A DNA stretch of 63,143 bases, the filler included, from Thraustochytrium aureum (Eukaryota), in the NCBI GenBank assembly GCA_012862495.1. It is 3 parts of one record of this genome, joined end to end, with 100 filler letters (N's around TTAATTAATTAA, not from the genome) between each part and the next. Parts side by side here need not be neighbours in the genome. Positions count along the whole stretch, not along the records: positions 1 to 26,753 come from BLSG01000146.1; 2 more parts are not named here. The stretch is one strand, 5' to 3'. The translations under genes were made by a program, and so were the position numbers. The first letter of the stretch is position 1; each line of letters opens with the position of its first letter. Of this stretch, positions 4,615 to 52,125 are shown piece after piece. The notes below the pieces were generated by a model. It saw only the letters and a list, made by a program, of their open reading frames with translations. It made no database searches and was not told where the DNA came from.

Positions 4615-5883
4615 TCAGCCACGAAGCTTGATTAATTTCTCCAGCTGCTTGACGCGCTTGTCGTTGGCGTCAAGTTCCTCCTTGAGCGCCGTGACCTCGG
4701 CCCGGTGCGCCGCATCTGTTTGGGCGAGCTTGGCTTGCCAGGTTTTTGTGAGGGCCTGCTCGAGGCCCTGCAAAGCAGCGACCTTGGCTTTCTTCTCCTG
4801 CTTGACGACGTCCATGGATCGTCGCTTGAACTCCATCTCCACCTCGTCGCGGACTTGCTTGCGCAGCGTTGCCTTTTCGGACTCGAACTCGGCGCGGAGG
4901 TCGTCGAGCTCCTTGTCCTTCTTTTCTTTCATCCACTTGGCGCCGAGATTGGCAGCCTCGTCGATGCGGCCGCGAAGCACCTCCTCGTTCTGCTCGAGCT
5001 CGGCCACCTTGGACAAGAGTTCCTCGACCTGCTCCTGGGCCGCGGCCGCGGCCGTGTCGGCCGAGGCGGCACCCGCGCCGATGGTGACAACTTTGCTGCC
5101 AGTCTCACGGAGCGCAATGAGGAGCTCCGCATTGTCAGCGCGCAGGTCCTCGACTTGCTCTTTCAGGTTGGAGACGAGGTCCTCGAGCTGGCGCGGGTTG
5201 ATCTTTTGAAATGTCTCTTGCAGCTCTTGCAAGTTTTTGAGCTTTTGCGAGCTCGTTGACATCGCGCACGTTTCTTTGAGCAGGTCCAGGCTAGTGCGCA
5301 GGGTCTCGCAGTTGCTGTCGATTGCTTCCTTGGCTGCCTGAGCCTCCTTCTCCACGGCGCCCTGCAGCTTGTCGATGTCGACTCCGAAGAGGTTTTGCGA
5401 CAGCTCCCCGATCACATTGCCAAGTCGTTTCGTGTGTTCAGGCCGCGCCGCGTCCTGGATGTTGCGCGCCTCTTCCTCTAGCTCGCGGTCTACCCGCAGG
5501 GCGTCTGCGAGGACGGGGAAGCTTGCTTCGCTCAGGCCGAGCTCGTTGGCGGTGGTGAGGCAGTCGTGCAAGAGTACGCGGTTGCGCTGCGAGATGGCGT
5601 TGTTGAAGTCGGTGAGGAGCTTGATCTCCTTGGCCTTCTTGACCATCTTGGGCTCTGCTTGGCGAAGCAGCTTGCTGTCGTAGCCAGCTTGCCATGCCAG
5701 CACGATGGCGCGCGCGAGCGAGCGTAGCTGGCCAGAGTTGAGCGCGCTTGTCAAGAGCATTTTGATTTGCACGAACACCTCGTCGCTCTCGTCATCCTCG
5801 GCGAGCGCTGCGTCGGGGCCCCGGTCCGTGTGGTGCAGCTTTGGATCTAGCCCCCCCGCGAGGACCTCCTGCGCGAGCTGCTC
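4615..5883 (-). CDS. Coiled-coil protein, 5'-truncated by gap
   Basis: Long E/K/L/A-rich helical ORF running into the N gap at 5884; no family recognised. Confidence 0.65.
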   Translation of the reverse strand, partial: EQLAQEVLAGGLDPKLHHTDRGPDAALAEDDESDEVFVQIKMLLTSALNSGQLRSLARAIVLAWQAGYDSKLLRQAEPKMVKKAKEIKLLTDFNNAISQRNRVLLHDCLTTANELGLSEASFPVLADALRVDRELEEEARNIQDAARPEHTKRLGNVIGELSQNLFGVDIDKLQGAVEKEAQAAKEAIDSNCETLRTSLDLLKETCAMSTSSQKLKNLQELQETFQKINPRQLEDLVSNLKEQVEDLRADNAELLIALRETGSKVVTIGAGAASADTAAAAAQEQVEELLSKVAELEQNEEVLRGRIDEAANLGAKWMKEKKDKELDDLRAEFESEKATLRKQVRDEVEMEFKRRSMDVVKQEKKAKVAALQGLEQALTKTWQAKLAQTDAAHRAEVTALKEELDANDKRVKQLEKLIKLRG

Positions 5884-7224: not shown

Positions 7225-7514
7225 CTAGCTGAGGCGCTTCGCGTCGGAAGGGGTGGGCGGCGTCGCCGCGCTGCTGACTAGCTGGTGCAGCACCTCCTTG
7301 GTGTACTTGAGGCGCTTGGAGATGCCCGGGTAGGCGTTGGCCTCGCTGATTAGGATGGTCTGCGAGTTGCCGTCCCGGTCAAAGTACGTCAGCCGCTTGG
7401 CCTGGGCCGAGAGCAGGATCTGCGTTTCGTCGAAGAAGGCGACCTGCACCGTGCGGTTGGAGAGGCGGAAAAAAATCGCGTGGCGTGTCCGCACCCATTT
7501 CTTCACGTACGGGA

Positions 7515-7549
<35 letters not shown>

Positions 7550-9129
7550 GCTTGCAGGTCGAGGGCGGCGACCCGCTCGTCGATGCCTAGCGCCGGCGAC
7601 ATGGGCACCGACCCGTCACCGTCTTGGAGCCGCGCTGACGCGTGCTTTTCCAAGTATGAGCGAAAGTGCTTGAGGAGCGTGACCTTCTTCTTCAGGTCGT
7701 CCGGGTAGGTCGTGAGCGAGTGGGCGCAAAACTTGTGGGAGCCTCGCTCGTAGTACTGGAAGTCGACGCGGTTGGGGGCCACGACGAGCTTGGTAGAGTC
7801 GTTAAAGTAGACCCCGACGATGCCGCCGCGCAAGATGTAGCCAAGGCCGTACTTGGACGTGTAGTCCACCCACTTGTCAACAAAGATCGCGGGCTCCCTC
7901 GTCACCAGCAGGTGGGCCGGCCGCGCAACGCTCGCCTTGGCGCGCTCACCGGGCGGCGAGAGCGGCGCGCGTCCCTTGCGGTTCGCTGAGACCCCCAAGT
8001 TCTCCTTGTCCGCCGCCGCGGCGTGCGGCTCGGATAATCGCCGCGAGCCCTCGTCGGGCGGCGCGGGAGATCTACGGTCGCCCAGAGGCCGCGGTCGCGC
8101 CCTGGCGGCCTTGTGCAAGTCCGCTGAAGCGCCTTCGCCGGAAGCACGCGTGGGCCCATCCTGTAACGCGGTGGCAGGGGAAAGAGCACGCGGGACCTGG
8201 CCGAGGATGTTGTCGAAGAAGGCGTGGGCGCGGATCGCCTTTAGATCTGGGCGCAACGCAGGGTCCCGGTTGAGGATTGAGCGAATCAGAGACTTGGCTG
8301 CCGCGGAGAGAGCGATGTCGGCAGGGAACGAATACAAGTTGGCTTGGATGCGCTTGTAGGTTTGCTTGACGTTCTTCGTCTCGAACGGGGGTCGGCCGAC
8401 GAGCATGGTGTAGAGGATGACGCCGATGCTCCAAATGTCGACCTCGAAGCTGTGGCCAAGCTTGCCATCCAGAATCTCTGGAGCAATGTAGTTTGGTGTC
8501 CCGCACATGGTTTTTTTGCGTTCGTCGGCGTGCTCGAGGCGCGTGGCGAGCCCAAAATCGCCAATGCGCACCTCGCGCCCGTTCGTTAAGAAAATGTTGC
8601 CCAGCTTGAGGTCGCGATGGATCACGTTTTTCTTCTGCAGGTACTCGACGCCGTCCAACAGCTGCAGCAGGATCCCCTTGGCCAGCACCTCGCTGAGGCG
8701 CCGTTTGCGCTTGACCAGTTCCATCAGCGTCTGGCTGTTGCAGTATTCGAGGAGGATGTAGACAAACTTGCTGTCCTCGAAAAAGTGCTCAAAGCGCACC
8801 ACGTTTGTGTGGGCAAGCGAGCGGTGGATTTTGATCTCGCTCAGCAGCTTGCGCCGTGCGCGGTCCTTCTTCAGAGTGGCTTTCTCCACGCATTTCCCGG
8901 CGTAGACCTGGCCGGTGCCGACGTGCGCAAACTTGTAGCAGCGCGCAAACCCGCCTTTGCCGAGGAGCCTGCCTTTCAAGTAGGTCTGGTCCCCGCGCTT
9001 GTCAACCACGCGCTCAGGCTCAAGTTGCGGCCCGTTCTCTGCGTCCTCCGTTGTTCCTTCGACGGCGGCCGTCTCGCTGTTCCCAGCAGCGTCGCTGCGC
9101 GGACGGGGCGACCCGCACTTGCTTGACAT
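7225..9129 (-). CDS. PLK1: Polo-like Ser/Thr kinase
   Basis: LGKGGFARC, HRDLKLGN, IGDFGLA, CGTPNYIAPE, plus polo boxes KWVDYTSKYGLGY and VKKWVRTRHAIFFRLSNRTVQV; poly-Q between the polo boxes. Confidence 0.95.
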
Positions 9130-10159
9130 TCTTCTGACTACCTACGAGCGCCCTCCGCCGCGCCTCGCGCCGCGGGGCTGCCCAGGCTCCTTCCGTGCCA
9201 GGTCTAAAGCTCCGTGCTACCCGCGTACCTCCGCGTCCCTGTATAGCGTGGCAGGCTCGGCGGTGGCGCCCTGGCGGCGGCTGGGGCCGACCGACTCGGC
9301 CGTCGCCGCTTGCCCGAGGCGCCGGTCCTGCACGCTAGCGCGGGCTCGCCCCAACCAAGAAGCGCAGCAAGCAAGCNNNNNNNNNNNNNNNNNNNNNNNN
9401 NNNNNNNNNNNNNNNNNNNNNNNNNNNNNNNNNNNNNNNNNNNNNNNNNNNNNNNNNNNNNNNNNNNNNNNNNNNNNNNNNNNNNNNNNNNNNNNNNNNN
9501 NNNNNNCTGATGAGCAAGAGTCAATTCAAACAGCGAACGGTTTTCTACGATGGGGATAGAGGGGAATGATCTCGGCAAGTCTGGCAATTCATGAATCCAA
9601 CTGTGCGTTGACGATTTGGCCGCCGCACGGCGAGACTCCCCGCGCACGTCGGAGCTGGCAGCTCCAGCCCGCCGAAAGCAGAGTGGAAGACCGCGGAGCG
9701 GGGGTGAGCTGCTTGAGCTGCGTACTTGGGCAGGAACGTCGTTCTTTCGGTCGGTGGGTGCACAGAAGCAGGTTGAGCAAGCGCTACCCTTCTTTTGATT
9801 GGCGCCCTCGCACTTTCCCGGCGGGTGGTCAGTCGGTCTGCTGCCGGTCGGAAGCGAGTCGAGGAGTCAGACGAGACAGGCCAGGCCAGGCCGAGCATGC
9901 AATCTTTCCAAAGAAGAAAGTTGACGCGCGCGCTCTCGCGCCTGCGAGCATCCACCACCACCAGCAAAATAAAAAACATAGTTCGCAAGCTCGTTTGGTT
10001 TCAATCATCAATTGAAGCGTTGGCGGCCACGGTTGATCCCGTGGCGCACGCGCAGCGCCGCCCCGCGCGCACGTCCCGCATGCCGCCGCCCCGCGGCAAT
10101 GCGCACCTTGGTTCGTAAGAATCGAGCGCGAGATAGTGATTCCGAGTCGGACCTCGGTT

Positions 10160-10955
10160 CTACTCAGTAAAACGACTGAGGAGCGTAAGCGCCCTGCGGC
10201 TGGAAGGGCTGGCCCGGAAAGCCGCACCGTGCGCGTTTGGAATGCCGTACCCCGTCTGTGGCGCCTGGTAGCCCTGCATGTGGTGCGACGAGAAGAGCGG
10301 CGAGTGGTGGTAAGGGTGCGCTGGGGCTTGCAGGCCGTGCTGAGGGAACTGGTGCAGGGCCTGTTGTTGGTGAGCCATAGTTGCGTGGAGGAAGCACAGA
10401 GTGCCCTGCACGATCGGCGTGCCGCACTGGTAGCACCGCAGCTGGGAACGCTCCGCAATACCAAAATGAGTGGCGCAAAGGCCATTGTACAGGACTGCAT
10501 TCGGGCAATACAGGCAGCGCGAGCCCGGGGCGCCCTGCGGAAACAGCGGAGCGTCCAAGTGGGCCGGCATGCCCGCTGGAAGCGCGCTGTGCAGGGACTG
10601 GCCAACCTGGGCGGAACCCTGCCCCGGGTGGATTGGGGCTCCAGCTGCGCTCGTGGCCTCCAGATTACGCTGCCGACGCGTGCAGATCGCTCCCTCGCGC
10701 GCGTGGGCCTTGCACCAGACGGGGCGCCCTGGCTTGAGCGCGAACGAGGGCTGCTTGTTGCAGCCCTTTGCTGCGCATGCCTTGCTCCCGGTAGTTCCGC
10801 CGACTGGGCGGTGGCGCTTGCACCAACGGAGCGGCGCGTCTGGGGCGTCGCGGCAGTGGGCCCGCCGGCCGCAGTGCTCTTTTTCGCAGCGCTTGTTTAC
10901 CACGTCAACGGCACCACTCGCCTTGTGCTTGGCACACCACCTTGGCGGCCCTCCT
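10160..10955 (-). CDS. EsV-1-7-type cysteine-rich repeat protein, 5'-truncated by gap
   Basis: Repeats PPRWCAKHKASGAVDVVNKRCEKEHC..., CAAKGCNKQPSFALKPGRPVWCKAH; further CxxC..CxxH units and a Q/H/P-rich tail. The frame stays open up to the gap at 10955. Confidence 0.7.
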
Positions 10956-12131
10956 NNNNNNNNNNNNNNNNNNNNNNNNNNNNNNNNNNNNNNNNNNNNN
11001 NNNNNNNNNNNNNNNNNNNNNNNNNNNNNNNNNNNNNNNNNNNNNNNNNNNNNNNNNNNNNNNNNNNNNNNNNNNNNNNNNNNNNNNNNNNNNNNNNNNN
11101 NNNNNNNNNNNNNNNNNNNNNNNNNNNNNNNNNNNNNNNNNNNNNNNNNNNNNNNNNNNNNNNNNNNNNNNNNNNNNNNNNNNNNNNNNNNNNNNNNNNN
11201 NNNNNNNNNNNNNNNNNNNNNNNNNNNNNNNNNNNNNNNNNNNNNNNNNNNNNNNNNNNNNNNNNNNNNNNNNNNNNNNNNNNNNNNNNNNNNNNNNNNN
11301 NNNNNNNNNNNNNNNNNNNNNNNNNNNNNNNNNNNNNNNNNNNNNNNNNNNNNNNNNNNNNNNNNNNNNNNNNNNNNNNNNNNNNNNNNNNNNNNNNNNN
11401 NNNNNNNNNNNNNNNNNNNNNNNNNNNNNNNNNGTCGGCCTCCCTGCGCAAGGGAAAAACATTAGCCCCGATTCACCCCCGATACCTCAGTAAACTCTCT
11501 CTGAGGCCAGAGCAGGATGCGCGTATCAGTGTGAGGAGGGCCGAGCGCACCGCCGAGCGGATTGAGGCGAGCCGGGAGGGCCGCCCATGTGAGGCGAAGC
11601 CCTCCCGGCTTGCTTTCCCCCTCGTAAAAGAACGTGGCGAGCGCGCGCTTGCACGTGAGGGAGGACATGGGCTCTTGAGCGGAAAAAAGGACGTGCGAGG
11701 CGCTGTGCTTGAGGACGTGGAAAGCACTCGGCAAGGGGAAACGGTCGCCGCCCCTTTCGAGCAAGTAGCTTCTCCGCAGAGCCGCAAGCGAAACAGGCTT
11801 TCTCGTGCCCTCCTCCCTACTGGCTCCTCAGGGCCGCACGGGAGAGCGCCTCGCCCTCTCGCGCTGCCTGAGACGATCCCCGCTCAGAGCCTCCCGGGCC
11901 AGCCGCTCTTGAAGCTCTTTCGGTCTTTGGTCACGGGAGAGACTGGGGGTCATTGGGGGCATCGGGCGCGTCTCTTCTGAAAGCCTCGGTTTATTAGAGA
12001 GTCTTGTTCGTGCCAGGGCTGTCGTGGAAGGAGGTGGGATTCAGCGGGAACGCGTGTCGGACGTGCTTGTGCCAAACAAAACTCAACGACAACTTCAAGG
12101 GCCAAACAAACCAAACGAAAAAAAAAAACGA

Positions 12132-12214: not shown

Positions 12215-12220
12215 AAAAAA
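12215..12220 (-). terminator. Pol III oligo-T terminator of the permuted tRNA
   Basis: TTTTTT on the minus strand, 11 nt after tRNA position 37, followed by more T4 runs. Confidence 0.7.
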
Positions 12221-12231
12221 GTACGGTTTGG

Positions 12232-12314
12232 TAGGAGGGAGATGCGCTATCCACTGCGCCACACGGCCGGTCAGTGTATGACCGAGCGGGGACTCGAACC
12301 CCGGACCCTCTCCT
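12232..12314 (-). tRNA. Circularly permuted tRNA-Arg(CCU): 3' half (nt 38-73) at 12314-12279, 10-nt spacer, 5' half (nt 1-37) at 12268-12232
   Basis: Minus strand reads A-GGAGA-GGGTC-CGGGG-TTCGAGT-CCCCG-CTCGGTC-A | tacactgacc | GGCCGTG-TG-GCGC-AGTGGATA-GCGC-A-TCTCC-CT-CCT-A. Swapping the halves gives a 73-nt cloverleaf with perfect D, anticodon (TCTCC/GGAGA) and T stems. The acceptor stem is 6/7 paired (one G-U, U6-U67 mismatch). A20 Arg identity element present. Confidence 0.85.
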
Positions 12315-12540
12315 TCTTCCAACCGCGCGAGACACAAAGTCTTGCACCATCTGGCACGCTCATGAACCGTGCAGAGCAAAACGACCATTCGGGCACGGCG
12401 GGCGGCTCTCGCCAGAATTGCATCCGGTCATCGCCAGGTCGTCGAGACAGGTCGTCGAGTCTGGTCGTCGAGACCGTGACAAAGGGGAATCAGGAAATCA
12501 AACTTGTTCACAGCTCCAGCCCCAGCTCCATTGTGACAAG

Positions 12541-13938
12541 CTAAAAAGTACGCAGGTCCTGCATCAGGCGGTCAGAGGTTGCCAGCAAGTCGGCAGCCGG
12601 GTCCACGGCGTTGATCGCCCGCATGAGCCCCGAGCCTTCGTCAAAGTAGCGCTCGGCGATGGCAAAGATAACGCCCTCCAGCTCAACGAGCTTGTGGAGG
12701 CACTGGCTCTGGCGGTCAAGGCGCTCGACCTCGAGCGAGTGCAGAGAGCGCATGGCCAGCTTCATTCGGGAGGCGTGCTTGATCTCCTCGCTGCGCAGCG
12801 CGTTCCGGCAGTCTTTGAGGAGCTCGCGCGAGGACTTGATCTCTTCCGCAATCGCTGCTGGCTCGTCCAGCGACGGAGAGGCTTGCTTGGCGCGGCCTCT
12901 TACCATGAACGACTTGTTGCGCTCGCGCGTCGCGGTCGGGACCGCCGTCTTGTAGGCGATCTGGAGGTCTCGGATCGATTCGTTCAGGTCCGCCACGCCC
13001 TTGTAGAGACGCTCAATGTTGCCTGTTGTGGTGGAGTGGAACTTTACGATCGAGGCGAGTTCAGCCTCGATCTTGTCGCGGATCTGCCGCATCGGCGCGA
13101 GCACCTCGTCCTCGAGCTGTTGCAAGTGCGTCTGCGCCATGCCGGAGCGGCGCTCAAAGCTCTTGTATATCGAGTTGAGCACGAGCGTCATGGTCGCCTG
13201 CTCGTTGGCGGCCACGTCCTGCGAGCGATGCGTCTGCTTGTCGAAGAGCGAGACCTCCGCCTCGATGAGCTGGCAGCGCACCTTAAAGTGGTCCTCGAGT
13301 CGCTTGGTGTCAATCAGAATCGGCCCAAAGTGAGCCACCAGCGCGTTGTACCCGTGCAGCCCAAACTCGTCCCACAGCTTTGCGTAGGCCTCCGCGGAGG
13401 CCTGCAGCATGGCGCGCGCCTCCGTGTTGACGGACCCGCGCTTCGGCGCTGCTGGCGCGCTGGCGGGGTCCGTGGCCGTCGTTAGCGCGCTCGAGGCGCT
13501 CGCGTTGCTGTGCCGCTTCTCGCCGAACGCCTCGAGCATCCTGCGCCGCTGCTTTTCGATGTCCTCTTGCGAAAGCTTGGTGCTCATTCGCGTCACCGGG
13601 TGCAGGGCGGCGGCCAGGTCGGAAGTTCCTGCCAGCTCTCTGGCCCGCAGCCCGTTGATCGCAAACTCAAAGGCNNNNNNNNNNNNNNNNNNNNNNNNNN
13701 NNNNNNNNNNNNNNNNNNNNNNNNNNNNNNNNNNNNNNNNNNNNNNNNNNNNNNNNNNNNNNNNNNNNNNNNNNNNNNNNNNNNNNNNNNNNNNNNNNNN
13801 NNNNNNNNNNNNNNNNNNNNNNNNNNNNNNNNNNNNNNNNNTCTGGTACCCCGCGCCGCGCTTCAGAAGCGTGCCTTCCATCTGCACGACCCACGGGGCG
13901 TCCAGGGTCGTCATCGACCCGCGCCCGACGATGGACAT
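12541..13938 (-). CDS. PH domain + F-BAR (FCH)-like protein (gap inside the PH domain)
   Basis: N-terminal MEGTLLKRG (PH beta-1); LWDEFGLHGYNAL...HFKVRCQLIEAE and LHSLEVERLD resemble F-BAR helices. Confidence 0.6.
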   Translation of the reverse strand: MSIVGRGSMTTLDAPWVVQMEGTLLKRGAGYQXXXXXXXXXXXXXXXXXXXXXXXXXXXXXXXXXXXXXXXXXXXXXXXXXXXXXXXXAFEFAINGLRARELAGTSDLAAALHPVTRMSTKLSQEDIEKQRRRMLEAFGEKRHSNASASSALTTATDPASAPAAPKRGSVNTEARAMLQASAEAYAKLWDEFGLHGYNALVAHFGPILIDTKRLEDHFKVRCQLIEAEVSLFDKQTHRSQDVAANEQATMTLVLNSIYKSFERRSGMAQTHLQQLEDEVLAPMRQIRDKIEAELASIVKFHSTTTGNIERLYKGVADLNESIRDLQIAYKTAVPTATRERNKSFMVRGRAKQASPSLDEPAAIAEEIKSSRELLKDCRNALRSEEIKHASRMKLAMRSLHSLEVERLDRQSQCLHKLVELEGVIFAIAERYFDEGSGLMRAINAVDPAADLLATSDRLMQDLRTF

Positions 13939-14616
13939 GCTTGCTTGCCCGTTCGCTCGCTTGCCAGCTGGAGCGTCGCGGCTGGGCTAGTAAGGCGGCT
14001 GCCTCGCGCGCCTGTCCGTGGCCACGTGCTCTGGTCCACCCCACGACGGCGTGCGCGACCAAGCGGGTGGAGCCCGACTTGCGGCTGGGCCCTCAACCGC
14101 TGCGCGCGTCGAAGGCGCTCTGCAGGCCCTCGTAGACCCGTTCGAGCAGCCGCTCGCCGGCTGCGGTCTCTGCCGCGGCTGCCGCGTGTCGGCCGGCTCC
14201 TGGACAGGTCTTGTCCGCGCTCGCGTTGAGATTGGTAGACTCAATTGTGCTGCGGCGCTGCGTGTGCGCGTGCTCGAAAGCAGGCCACTCGAATCCGCCA
14301 TCCTGTATGGGCAGACCAAAACTTGCCTCCAAGTGCGCACCAGACGCTCTCAACAGCGGCCAGAGATTCCTTGCCCTTGCGCTGCGCAAGGAAGCGGCCC
14401 GCAAGGCCAATGACAGGCCGAGTCTGGCGGATTCCAGTGGCCCGTTGTCCACTTCTCCGTCCATGTGTACTTCACACGCTGCGCCTTCCTTTGCCGGAGA
14501 TGTTGCGAGCTGGAAGAGCGGGAGCCAGCGCCTTGGTGGGCCCGGCACGCAGATTTTGCGAGCGTTTCCATCCTCGTTCGTTCAACTTGGACGTCGATTG
14601 ATCGAGCCGCTCGGTT

Positions 14617-49464: not shown

Positions 49465-50964
49465 TTTCGCGTCCTGCAGCAGGTCCCACTTGCTCGCAGT
49501 CGTGGAGTACCAGGTCTGCTGCACGCCGCGCAGGGAGGCTGTGGGGAAAGGGAGCCTTCCTAGCACCGCTCTGCTGCCCCTCCCTTGCCGATCGAGTTAT
49601 GGGCTTGGTCGCCGAGTTGCGGGTCTGTAGGTACCCTCCGCGTGAATGCTACAAACAAAGGCCCGCGTCTGCCGGGGTGGGGAAAAGTCGTCCCATTTTC
49701 GTGCAATCGTGCTCTCCAACTGCTCCGAGCTCGCCTCGTCCGATGCGCGGCTCTGGTGGCTCTTTCCGGTGCCCGTTGTAAGCGCAGTCAAGGTGCAGTA
49801 GAGTAGGGCGAGGGAGTAGAGCTGGCGTGTGACACACCTGAAGCTGACAGCTTCTTTGGATCCCGGACCGCCTGCGCAGCTGCACGGTACTCCTAAGTAC
49901 TCTACAAGCAAGTGCTTGATGGTGAATTGACGAGTCATGACACGACTGTCTCGTCACGTTTTGTGCCTGCGGTCTGGTCGCGACGAGTGGGGCATCTCTG
50001 CACCTGTATCGACGTCGCTTGCTTGCCAGGCGCTACCACACTGCGACCCGAGCCGCTTGAGCGAAGACTTGCTGTTCCGTAATGCCAAGAGGCCGTGATC
50101 CGGAATAGGCGCTCAAGGTGCTCAGTGGCGGGAGCACTTGCTGCGCAACGGACGCACCACCGATGCACGCCGCTCCCTCGCGCGCAGCACACTCAAGTTG
50201 GCTCAACAGCCACTACCGGTACTTGCTCTCTACTAGAGCTAGCTAGAGTACCTGTTGCTTTGCTTACAACCGATCGATCACCTTCGAGCAACCTGCGCGT
50301 CTCCTGCTTGCAAGANNNNNNNNNNNNNNNNNNNNNNNNNNNNNNNNNNNNNNNNNNNNNNNNNNNNNNNNNNNNNNNNNNNNNNNNNNNNNNNNNNNNN
50401 NNNNNNTTCGCCACGCCGCAGCAGGACAGCAGCCGCAGAGGACCGTTACCGGCCAGCCAACCCCTCTGCCTGCTCGGCGAAACGGGCGTCGCGGCGTTGG
50501 GTGTGGAGCAGCAGCAGCAGCAGCAGGAGCAGCAGCATGAGCAGGAGCAGCGGGAGCAGCAGGGCAAAGGCGCAAGAAACAAGGAAGGAAGGCCCCTGCA
50601 TGACGAGCTCAGGCATCGAAGAAAGCGCCGCTTGGCGCATGGCGTTGGAGAGGCCGGGTCCGGCGCGGCGCTCTGCGGCCAGAGAGGCTGGCAGGCTCGC
50701 GAGAGGCCGACCTTCTCCGACACTCTTCAAGTTGATCGAGTCTTGTCCGGCCTGCAAGCAAGGCCCAACAGTCATTCGTTCGTTGTCTCAACGGCTGGCC
50801 GATGATCGAGCGAGCGAGCACAAGACAGCAACTTGAAGAAGGGTTTGGCAGGCAGGCAAGGCAGGCAGTCACCGAAGCGCACGGGAGCAACACGAGGCGA
50901 GCGAGTCGGACGTGCGGCCGGTAGCAGGAGCGAGAGAAGGCAGGGCGAGCGAGACAGAGGCAAG

Positions 50965-52125
50965 ATGGGCGCCGGCGGAAGCGTGGAGAAGCCGCTGGAG
51001 GAGGTCAAGTCGGAGTTTCTTGCCAAGCTCGAGGAGGTGCGCAGCAACTACCCGAACAACCTGTGCGCCAAGCACCTGACGAAGGAGTACTTTGAGTCGC
51101 TGTCGGAGGATGACCAGAAGGTGCTGTACCAGTGCTGCATCACCGGCATCGACAACCCCGACTCGGGCCTCGGCTGCTACGCGATGAAGCCCTCAGACTA
51201 CGAGACCTTCAAGCCCTTCTTCGACAAGGTGATCCGCGAGTACCACGGCGACGAGAGCGGCGAGAAAAAGCACGAGACCAACTGGGACATCTCCGAGGTC
51301 GGCGAGGGCGGCGTGCTCGACGTGACCGCACTCGGCCTCGAAGAGCTCTCCATGCGCGTCCGCGTCGGCCGCAACCTCAAGTGCTACAACCTTCCTGGGC
51401 TCATGGACAAGGAGGAGCGCATCAAGTTTGAGCAGACCATGCTCGAGGCGTTCAAGAAGCTCCAGGAAAACCCTCAGTACGGCGGCACCGTCTACTCGCT
51501 GACCCCGGACTTTGGCGAGGGCGTCGAAAACCCCAACAAAATCTCGGACGAAAAGTACCAGGAGCTCGTAGACGCGCACATCATGTTCAAGGACATGGAC
51601 GCCGACCCGTACCTCAAGAGCGCAGGCATCTCGTCCGACTGGCCGTACGGGCGCGGTTGCTACGTCTCCGAGGATGGCCAGTTCATCATCTGGTTTGGCG
51701 AGGAGGACCAGCTGCGCATCATGTGCATGAAGAACGGCACCAAGCTGAACGAGGTCTTTGACCGCCTCAACGAGGGCCTCAAGACCATCGAGTCCATCGA
51801 GGGCATCGAGTTCGCAACAAACGAAGACTACGGCTACGTCACCTCGTGCCCTTCCAACCTCGGCACCGGCATGCGCGCCTCGGTGCACATCAAGATCCCC
51901 AAACTGACTGCCGACAAGACGGATGTCAAGGCCAAGGAGATCTGCGGCCCGCTTGGCCTCTCCGTGCGCGGTACGGGTGGCGAGCACACCCCGATCGGCG
52001 ACGACGGCACCGTCGACATCTCCCCGCGCGCCCGCCTCTTCATCCAGGAGCGCGAGATCATCGCCTTCCTCTTTGACGGCATTTCCAAGCTTATGGCCGC
52101 CGAGAACGCTTGCGAGAGCGCCTAG
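50965..52125 (+). CDS. Phosphagen (arginine-type ATP:guanido) kinase with N-terminal MGAGGS
   Basis: DSGLGCYA, SMRVRVGRN, WPYGRG, EEDQLR, CPSNLGTGMRASVH, RGTGGEH; strong codon bias. Confidence 0.93.
   Translation: MGAGGSVEKPLEEVKSEFLAKLEEVRSNYPNNLCAKHLTKEYFESLSEDDQKVLYQCCITGIDNPDSGLGCYAMKPSDYETFKPFFDKVIREYHGDESGEKKHETNWDISEVGEGGVLDVTALGLEELSMRVRVGRNLKCYNLPGLMDKEERIKFEQTMLEAFKKLQENPQYGGTVYSLTPDFGEGVENPNKISDEKYQELVDAHIMFKDMDADPYLKSAGISSDWPYGRGCYVSEDGQFIIWFGEEDQLRIMCMKNGTKLNEVFDRLNEGLKTIESIEGIEFATNEDYGYVTSCPSNLGTGMRASVHIKIPKLTADKTDVKAKEICGPLGLSVRGTGGEHTPIGDDGTVDISPRARLFIQEREIIAFLFDGISKLMAAENACESA

Follow-up and report, generated by a model that had tools for sequence, protein, structure and literature searches.

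The window, by which is meant the whole stretch of DNA analysed (63,143 nucleotides, filler included), carries intron-poor genes of eukaryotic character, among them those for Polo kinase, myosin, COG3, HECT, Hsp70 and Sec15. Between a protein-coding frame ending at 12541 and other frames starting below about 11980 lies an intergenic tRNA gene whose two halves appear on the minus strand in swapped order, with a leader followed by a 36-nt 3′ half, a 10-nt spacer, a 37-nt 5′ half, an 11-nt trailer and a T6 run (Table 1). Re-parsing of the sequence agrees with a first-pass annotation of this DNA, which had described the 3′ half, the 10-nt spacer and the 5′ half in this order on the minus strand, and the swapped halves can be regarded as a confirmed observation.

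Table 1. Features of the permuted tRNA gene and its surroundings in the window, and of related genes in JGI metagenome contigs (last two rows, positions in the contig)
Feature	Position	Strand	Remarks
Leader	12315..12326	-	precedes the 3′ half
tRNA 3′ half, positions 38-73	12279..12314	-	sequence parse; 3′ anticodon-stem strand, 5-nt variable loop, T arm (B box), 3′ acceptor strand, A73
Intervening spacer, 10 nt	12269..12278	-	between 3′ half and 5′ half
tRNA 5′ half, positions 1-37, 37 nt	12232..12268	-	sequence parse; acceptor 5′ strand, D arm (A box) with A20, anticodon CCU (12235-12233), A37
Trailer, 11 nt	12221..12231	-	complementary to leader (outer helix of junction)
T6 run	12215..12220	-	seen in the sequence; likely RNA polymerase III terminator, a role taken from Soma 2014, section 5 (PMC3978253)
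Protein-coding frame, 481 aa stop to stop	12541..13986	-	no Pfam family; ends 227 nt upstream of the tRNA gene
EsV-1-7 cysteine-rich motif protein	10160..11461	-	downstream of the tRNA gene; an assembly gap crosses the frame
Polo-like kinase	7225..9141	-	host marker (thraustochytrid clade)
ATP:guanido phosphotransferase (phosphagen kinase) gene	50806..52125	+	
L069, permuted tRNA-Arg(CCU)	4986-5066	+	spacer 8, score 120.0
L037, two permuted Arg genes	4967-5080; 5340-5417	+	~260 nt apart

Exchange of the two halves gives a 73-nt tRNA-Arg(cct) with an ARAGORN score of 121.7, whose D (4/4), anticodon (5/5) and T (5/5) stems are fully paired and whose acceptor stem keeps 6/7 pairs, one of them G-U, with a U6-U67 mismatch. 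The consensus bases U8, A14, G15:C48, G18G19, A20, U33, T54-C56-A58 and the discriminator A73 are all present, and CCA is not encoded. This ARAGORN fold bears out the cloverleaf with A20 and 6/7 acceptor pairs that the annotation had drawn, although the leader-trailer pairing, a competing spacer hairpin and a mismatch at the anticodon-intron pair, all described below, had been overlooked there. Its expectation that standard scanners would miss the gene also holds, as ARAGORN finds no tRNA gene in the unswapped window and Rfam gives no match at its gathering score; likewise, neither the window sequence nor ARAGORN reveals a partner 5′ half upstream or a T arm downstream, in agreement with the same annotation. 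A swap-aware ARAGORN scan points to a single place in the window, with scores of 105.6-123.3 across 7 overlapping segments. When 299 dinucleotide-shuffled windows were scanned in this way, 32 gave any match, one reached at least 105 and none at least 110, the best score being 106.5 versus 121.7 for the permuted gene; at the default threshold and unscored, 98 places were found in 542 shuffles. The codon AGG is in use, with 28 of the 420 Arg codons in nine frames.

The flanking genes had been considered stramenopile-like, and the one marker followed up, the Polo kinase, does fall in a thraustochytrid clade. Its eight best matches score 546-793 bits and the next one 532; among the eight are Mucochytrium quahogii (59%), Hondaea fermentalgiana (55%) and a cluster to which Thraustochytrium sp. 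LLF1b belongs. A quick tree of 46 rows, with long branches flagged and none of the rows named as another class of stramenopiles, places the window protein in a 7-row clade (SH-aLRT 99) with LLF1b, M. quahogii and H. fermentalgiana. Judged from the Polo kinase as a single marker, the host is likely a thraustochytrid labyrinthulomycete. An MMETSP header bears the taxon 87120, which maps to a fungus and is presumably 87102, Aurantiochytrium limacinum, with transposed digits; the host call is independent of it. Thraustochytrids are not known to have plastids. One member of the group has been termed non-photosynthetic (PMC8354545).

Regarding the integrity of the locus, the scaffold contains 21 N runs, of which the nearest end at 11433 and start at 13675, about 800 and 1360 nt from the gene. 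Among six sequencing runs from two studies, five hold part of the stretch, and the contigs of four (X1-X4) were compared. A 755-nt X1 contig covers 12183-12937 with two differences (12399 and 12425), none of them in the tRNA gene, which it overhangs by 49 and 623 bases with no joint listed; since its depth is below 5 and the source sample may be X1 itself, this contig is support against a misassembly rather than proof. The contigs of X2-X4, RNA by our guess, cover the upstream coding frame and reach 12434 at most, short of the tRNA gene. A second X1 contig of similar depth shares 12240-12269, where the 5′ half has its initial 30 bases, and then goes on as an Arg(UCG) gene would, possibly one interrupted by a 37/38 intron.

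Permuted genes with a 37/38 junction are known as type II, the commonest permuted type, whose junction is also the site of eukaryotic splicing and whose published spacers range from 1 to 74 nt (PMC3978253, Table 1). For its 3′ cut, human TSEN requires position 32 to be paired with the third base ahead of the cut (PMC8479045), and the junction register used here was set beforehand from this rule. In that register, leader bases -4 to -6 of the window gene pair with U33, C34 and C35, whereas base -3 is an A facing C32, which leaves a C-A mismatch in place of the anticodon-intron pair of a canonical TSEN substrate. Pairing is also possible between the trailer and leader bases -7 to -12, and a test for the bulge-helix-bulge motif or its relaxed form (hBH) finds 3/4 central pairs and a 6-bp outer helix to be possible, with 32:-3 mismatched. 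The permuted-gene reading of the first-pass annotation stands as regards layout, 37/38 break and spacer length; the C32-A mismatch and the spacer hairpin make the RNA something other than a textbook substrate.

To place this junction among similar ones, a metagenome collection was used. A JGI scan with one degenerate pattern (T arm, gap, D arm with an 8-nt loop, anticodon and T run) gave at least 120 loci. Under a strict rule, the 120 matches listed comprised 101 ordinary or tandem genes, 6 with a 37/38 permutation, 9 other permuted-like and 4 unclear; after inspection, L105, with its perfect swapped stem, and L042, whose variable loop has 4 nt, were reassigned to the 37/38 class, which brought the 37/38-permuted Arg genes among the matches listed to 8/120 (L022, L037, L041, L042, L050, L069, L093 and L105). 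All eight loci are Arg, the amino acid that the scan pattern favours. L050 is a near-duplicate of L022, and L093 of L041; no labyrinthulomycete homolog of the permuted gene occurs among the 120 matches listed. Two ordinary tandem genes were considered and rejected as a source of the arrangement in the window, as 101 of the 120 matches listed have both genes complete and the window does not. A viral source was likewise discarded: three IMG/VR scans gave 5, 6 and 26 loci, and none of these has a 37/38-permuted Arg gene.

Two of these contigs resemble chrysophytes. L069 has as neighbour an aminodeoxychorismate synthase that shares a 90% cluster with a protein of taxon 2985 (Ochromonas), at 96.6% over 179 aa, from which its host is likely an Ochromonas-like chrysophyte. 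L037 carries a permuted Arg(CCU) gene (spacer 5, score 117.5) and, upstream of it, a permuted Arg(CCG) gene whose score is 120.1 after removal of a 19-nt insert at 51/52. Its neighbour MFAP1 has its best species-named match in Mallomonas annulata (43%), followed by Ectocarpus, Heterosigma and Chromulina, which makes the host look chrysophyte-like, less firmly than in the case of L069. The two other CCU genes, those of L069 and L037, share 53/73 and 52/73 positions with the window gene. The U6-U67 mismatch also occurs in L037b, L022 and L105 and is therefore not a sign of decay.

The scan brought further observations. The Arg(CCG) gene of L037 combines permutation with a non-canonical T-stem intron, as in C. 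merolae, and has a TATA upstream. L022, L050, L041, L093, L105 and L042 are 37/38-permuted Arg genes with the anticodons ACG, UCU, CCG and UCG, and L022 and L041 look like Mamiellophyceae. Arg(ACG), Arg(CCG) and Arg(UCG) do not figure in the 2014 table of permuted genes (PMC3978253). Ten phage or phage-like contigs (L006, L008, L009, L016, L046, L064, L099, L121, L131 and L148) contain tRNA-like elements in which the T arm and a closed acceptor precede the D arm, possibly YrlA-like mimics, and in several of them the anticodon stem is completed downstream, so that the junction would fall in the variable region. At 270-365 of L074, a CA microsatellite is followed by parts of a Pro-like tRNA (T arm, acceptor, spacer and 5′ half), and this element has no anticodon-stem partner.

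Seven distinct genes (the window gene, L069, L037a, L037b, L022, L041 and L105, with the duplicates L050 and L093 dropped and L042 not included) were compared at the junction. Leader bases -3 to -6 form 18/28 Watson-Crick pairs with positions 32-35 across this set, while eight slid registers yield only 7-12/28 and none of 20000 permutations reaches 18. The four likely stramenopile genes contribute 10/16 pairs by hand count. Since the four anticodons present among the seven genes differ, the leaders track the anticodon loop. The 32:-3 pair is present in 4/7 genes and absent in the window, L069 and L105; L069 matches the pattern of the window, with GGA at -6 to -4, G at -2 and -3 unpaired. A short central pairing of the leader is thus supported across genes. 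In the case of the outer helix, the leader-trailer duplex of the window (-11.5 kcal/mol) is reached by 0/892 local and 53/18175 random 14-mers of the window; 278/5000 composition-matched 14-mer shuffles also reach it, which is not significant, and the same is true of a whole-precursor test in which 46/300 leader shuffles match the window gene, where only L050 among seven genes stands out (7/300). As these shuffle tests are not significant, the outer helix is not established.

At the other end of the molecule, the last five bases of the spacer complement positions 69-73, and a 6-bp hairpin is possible with G1. In a two-dimensional model of the circle, which leaves out the tertiary contacts of the L-shaped tRNA, the form with the spacer hairpin (-23.5 kcal/mol) lies 2.7 below the canonical acceptor fold (-20.8 kcal/mol), and the pair probabilities of the canonical acceptor are about 0. 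Spacer shuffles match the hairpin 8 times per 2000 in L105, 45 in the window, 72 in L037a and 156 in L041, and the same comparison gives no comparable hairpin in L069, L037b and L022; as this test was devised after seeing the window gene, its outcome is a lead. The modelled hairpin could act as a trap and reduce function, or else as a switch that sets the sequence of processing steps.

Permutation places the A and B boxes of the gene in reversed order. There is no TATA within 70 nt upstream of the window gene, and a candidate substitute A box at 12339..12349 (minus strand), 50 nt before the B box, was rejected as background, since 159/436 local null stretches reach its score. Upstream A-box-like words rise above background in L069 (0/436), L037a (8/436) and L022 (17/436), and do not in the window, L037b, L041 and L105. 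The word in L069 is a strong one, 43 nt before the B box, and may represent a substitute promoter. A TATA-like element upstream was reported for "most" permuted genes of C. merolae and as "ambiguous" in green algae (PMC3978253), and by this wording of Soma 2014 it is typical of type II genes, not defining. Read-through transcription from the upstream gene is possible.

The eukaryotic permuted tRNA genes described so far in the sources consulted belong to nuclei of red or green algae or to nucleomorphs derived from them (PMC3978253, PMC13578239, PMC12633428, 10.1101/2021.12.21.473619). The first-pass annotation had named Cyanidioschyzon merolae, prasinophytes, the Bigelowiella nucleomorph and Thermofilum as known hosts, and had left out Auxenochlorella (PMC12633428). 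It had also known of no permuted tRNA in stramenopiles, and the papers listed in the literature searches include no such report; the available text of a study that annotated two heterokontophytes mentions permuted genes only for red algae (10.1101/2021.12.21.473619). With the type II genes of C. merolae, Ostreococcus, Micromonas, the B. natans nucleomorph and Auxenochlorella (PMC3978253, PMC12633428), the window gene has in common the order of the halves, the 37/38 junction, a short spacer (10 nt versus the published 1-74), a downstream T run, no encoded CCA and flanks that may pair around the anticodon. It differs from them in lying in what is likely a stramenopile nucleus, whereas their hosts are archaeplastid or archaeplastid-derived, and in lacking an upstream TATA and the anticodon-intron pair. 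C. merolae has a permuted Arg(CCU) with its junction at 59/60 (type IV) instead of 37/38, the type II gene of O. tauri is Arg(UCU), and a type II Arg(CCU) is absent from the 2014 table (PMC3978253). The type IV genes of Thermofilum pendens also have a permuted order, but with a 59/60 junction, an encoded CCA and an archaeal host (PMC3978253). As for canonical pre-tRNAs with a 37/38 intron (PMC8479045), the cut sites, after 37 and before 38, are the same and the leader and trailer of the window would play the part of the intron; unlike in those substrates, this "intron" is split between the ends of the transcript, the acceptor end is closed by the spacer and C32 faces A, not G.

The most probable reading, in our view, is that of a working type II permuted gene, matured via a circle and descended by tandem duplication from an intron-bearing gene, which would apparently be the first of its type from stramenopile nuclei. 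Its layout, cloverleaf, leader complementarity and recurrence in other contigs are direct observations. For transcription and every processing step, we infer a course like that of red and green algae, in which RNA polymerase III would transcribe leader, 3′ half, spacer, 5′ half and trailer, and the halves would form a cloverleaf with its acceptor end closed by the spacer. Leader and trailer would pair around the anticodon in a relaxed helix-bulge-helix junction, much like a 37/38 intron in two pieces, the splicing endonuclease would cut after A37 and before A38, and a ligase would join the ends into a circle. Finally, RNase P and tRNase Z would excise the spacer and CCA would be added, resulting in a product that reads AGG. 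The gene would have started, as in the published origin model (PMC3978253), with the tandem duplication of an intron-bearing gene and the disappearance of the outer exons.

The same duplication might have left only a silent relic, a tandem duplicate minus its outer exons, with AGG read by a conventional Arg(CCU) or Arg(UCU). The missing anticodon-intron pair, the competing spacer hairpin, the lack of a promoter upstream (no TATA in 70 nt and an A box at background) and the minor status of AGG all fit decay, which we nevertheless deem unlikely, given that every consensus position is intact and yet no trace of the outer exons persists, that the T6 run is in place and that distant hosts show the same arrangement with register-specific leader pairing. 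A different order of events, in which RNase P and tRNase Z would cut first and the nicked tRNA would then be trimmed and ligated at 37/38 with no accumulation of a circle, appears distinctly improbable: these enzymes do read the acceptor/T half and need no anticodon end (PMC3978253, section 6), and the junction of the window is on paper a poor endonuclease substrate, but circular intermediates have been detected in both red and green algae (PMC3978253) and the spacer hairpin would delay, not favour, early cutting at the acceptor end.

Two further explanations have very little probability. An unprocessed YrlA-like mimic of a tRNA, in which Ro60 or some other protein would bind the leader-trailer stem, would account for the sole Rfam match near the locus (YrlA, 31.4 bits, E 0.00058), for a topology equal to that of YrlA (RF02553; 10.1101/312249), with the T arm before the D arm, a closed acceptor loop and ends in a long stem, and for the closed acceptor hairpin favoured in two-dimensional models. 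That score is, however, far under the gathering cut-off of 69 for RF02553, the alignment leaves the model's conserved 5′ Ro60-binding strand unmatched, and no TROVE/Ro60 match appears in the 72 of 203 window frames scanned. Moreover, YrlA as described has no anticodon loop (10.1101/312249), whereas joining of the window RNA restores an exact and complete 7-nt loop with matching A20 identity, in a eukaryotic context and with a T-run terminator, so that we consider the mimic very improbable. A misassembly in which an ordinary gene had its halves swapped is barely credible: the many N runs of the scaffold, together with the low depth of X1 and its possible status as source sample, leave some room for it, but the nearest gaps are distant, the X1 contig crosses the gene with bases to spare, the flanks are complementary and unrelated assemblies have the same layout.

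A last question is how far the finding extends. Permuted tRNA genes may be hidden and widespread in stramenopile nuclei, in both of the deep branches, Bigyra (thraustochytrids) and Ochrophyta (chrysophytes), including genes that are permuted and also bear non-canonical T-stem introns, an extension that we advance tentatively and with more doubt than confidence. If true, it would imply a relaxed, red-alga-like tRNA splicing outside Archaeplastida, transcription that does without a TATA although the A and B boxes are reversed, and a spacer hairpin by which the acceptor strand is kept in place until the halves are joined at the anticodon. The finding also means that tRNA genes of these protists escape standard annotation (ARAGORN, Rfam). 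A case in a plastid-less stramenopile, together with the two chrysophyte-like cases, would break the link of permuted genes to red and green algae. Two reviews weigh ancient inheritance of permuted tRNA genes against transfer, endosymbiotic or lateral, and against repeated origin, and the stramenopile cases bear on the choice among them. Since both thraustochytrids and Ochromonas-type chrysophytes are in culture and have been sequenced, this question can be tested on genomes that already exist and by a single RT-PCR.
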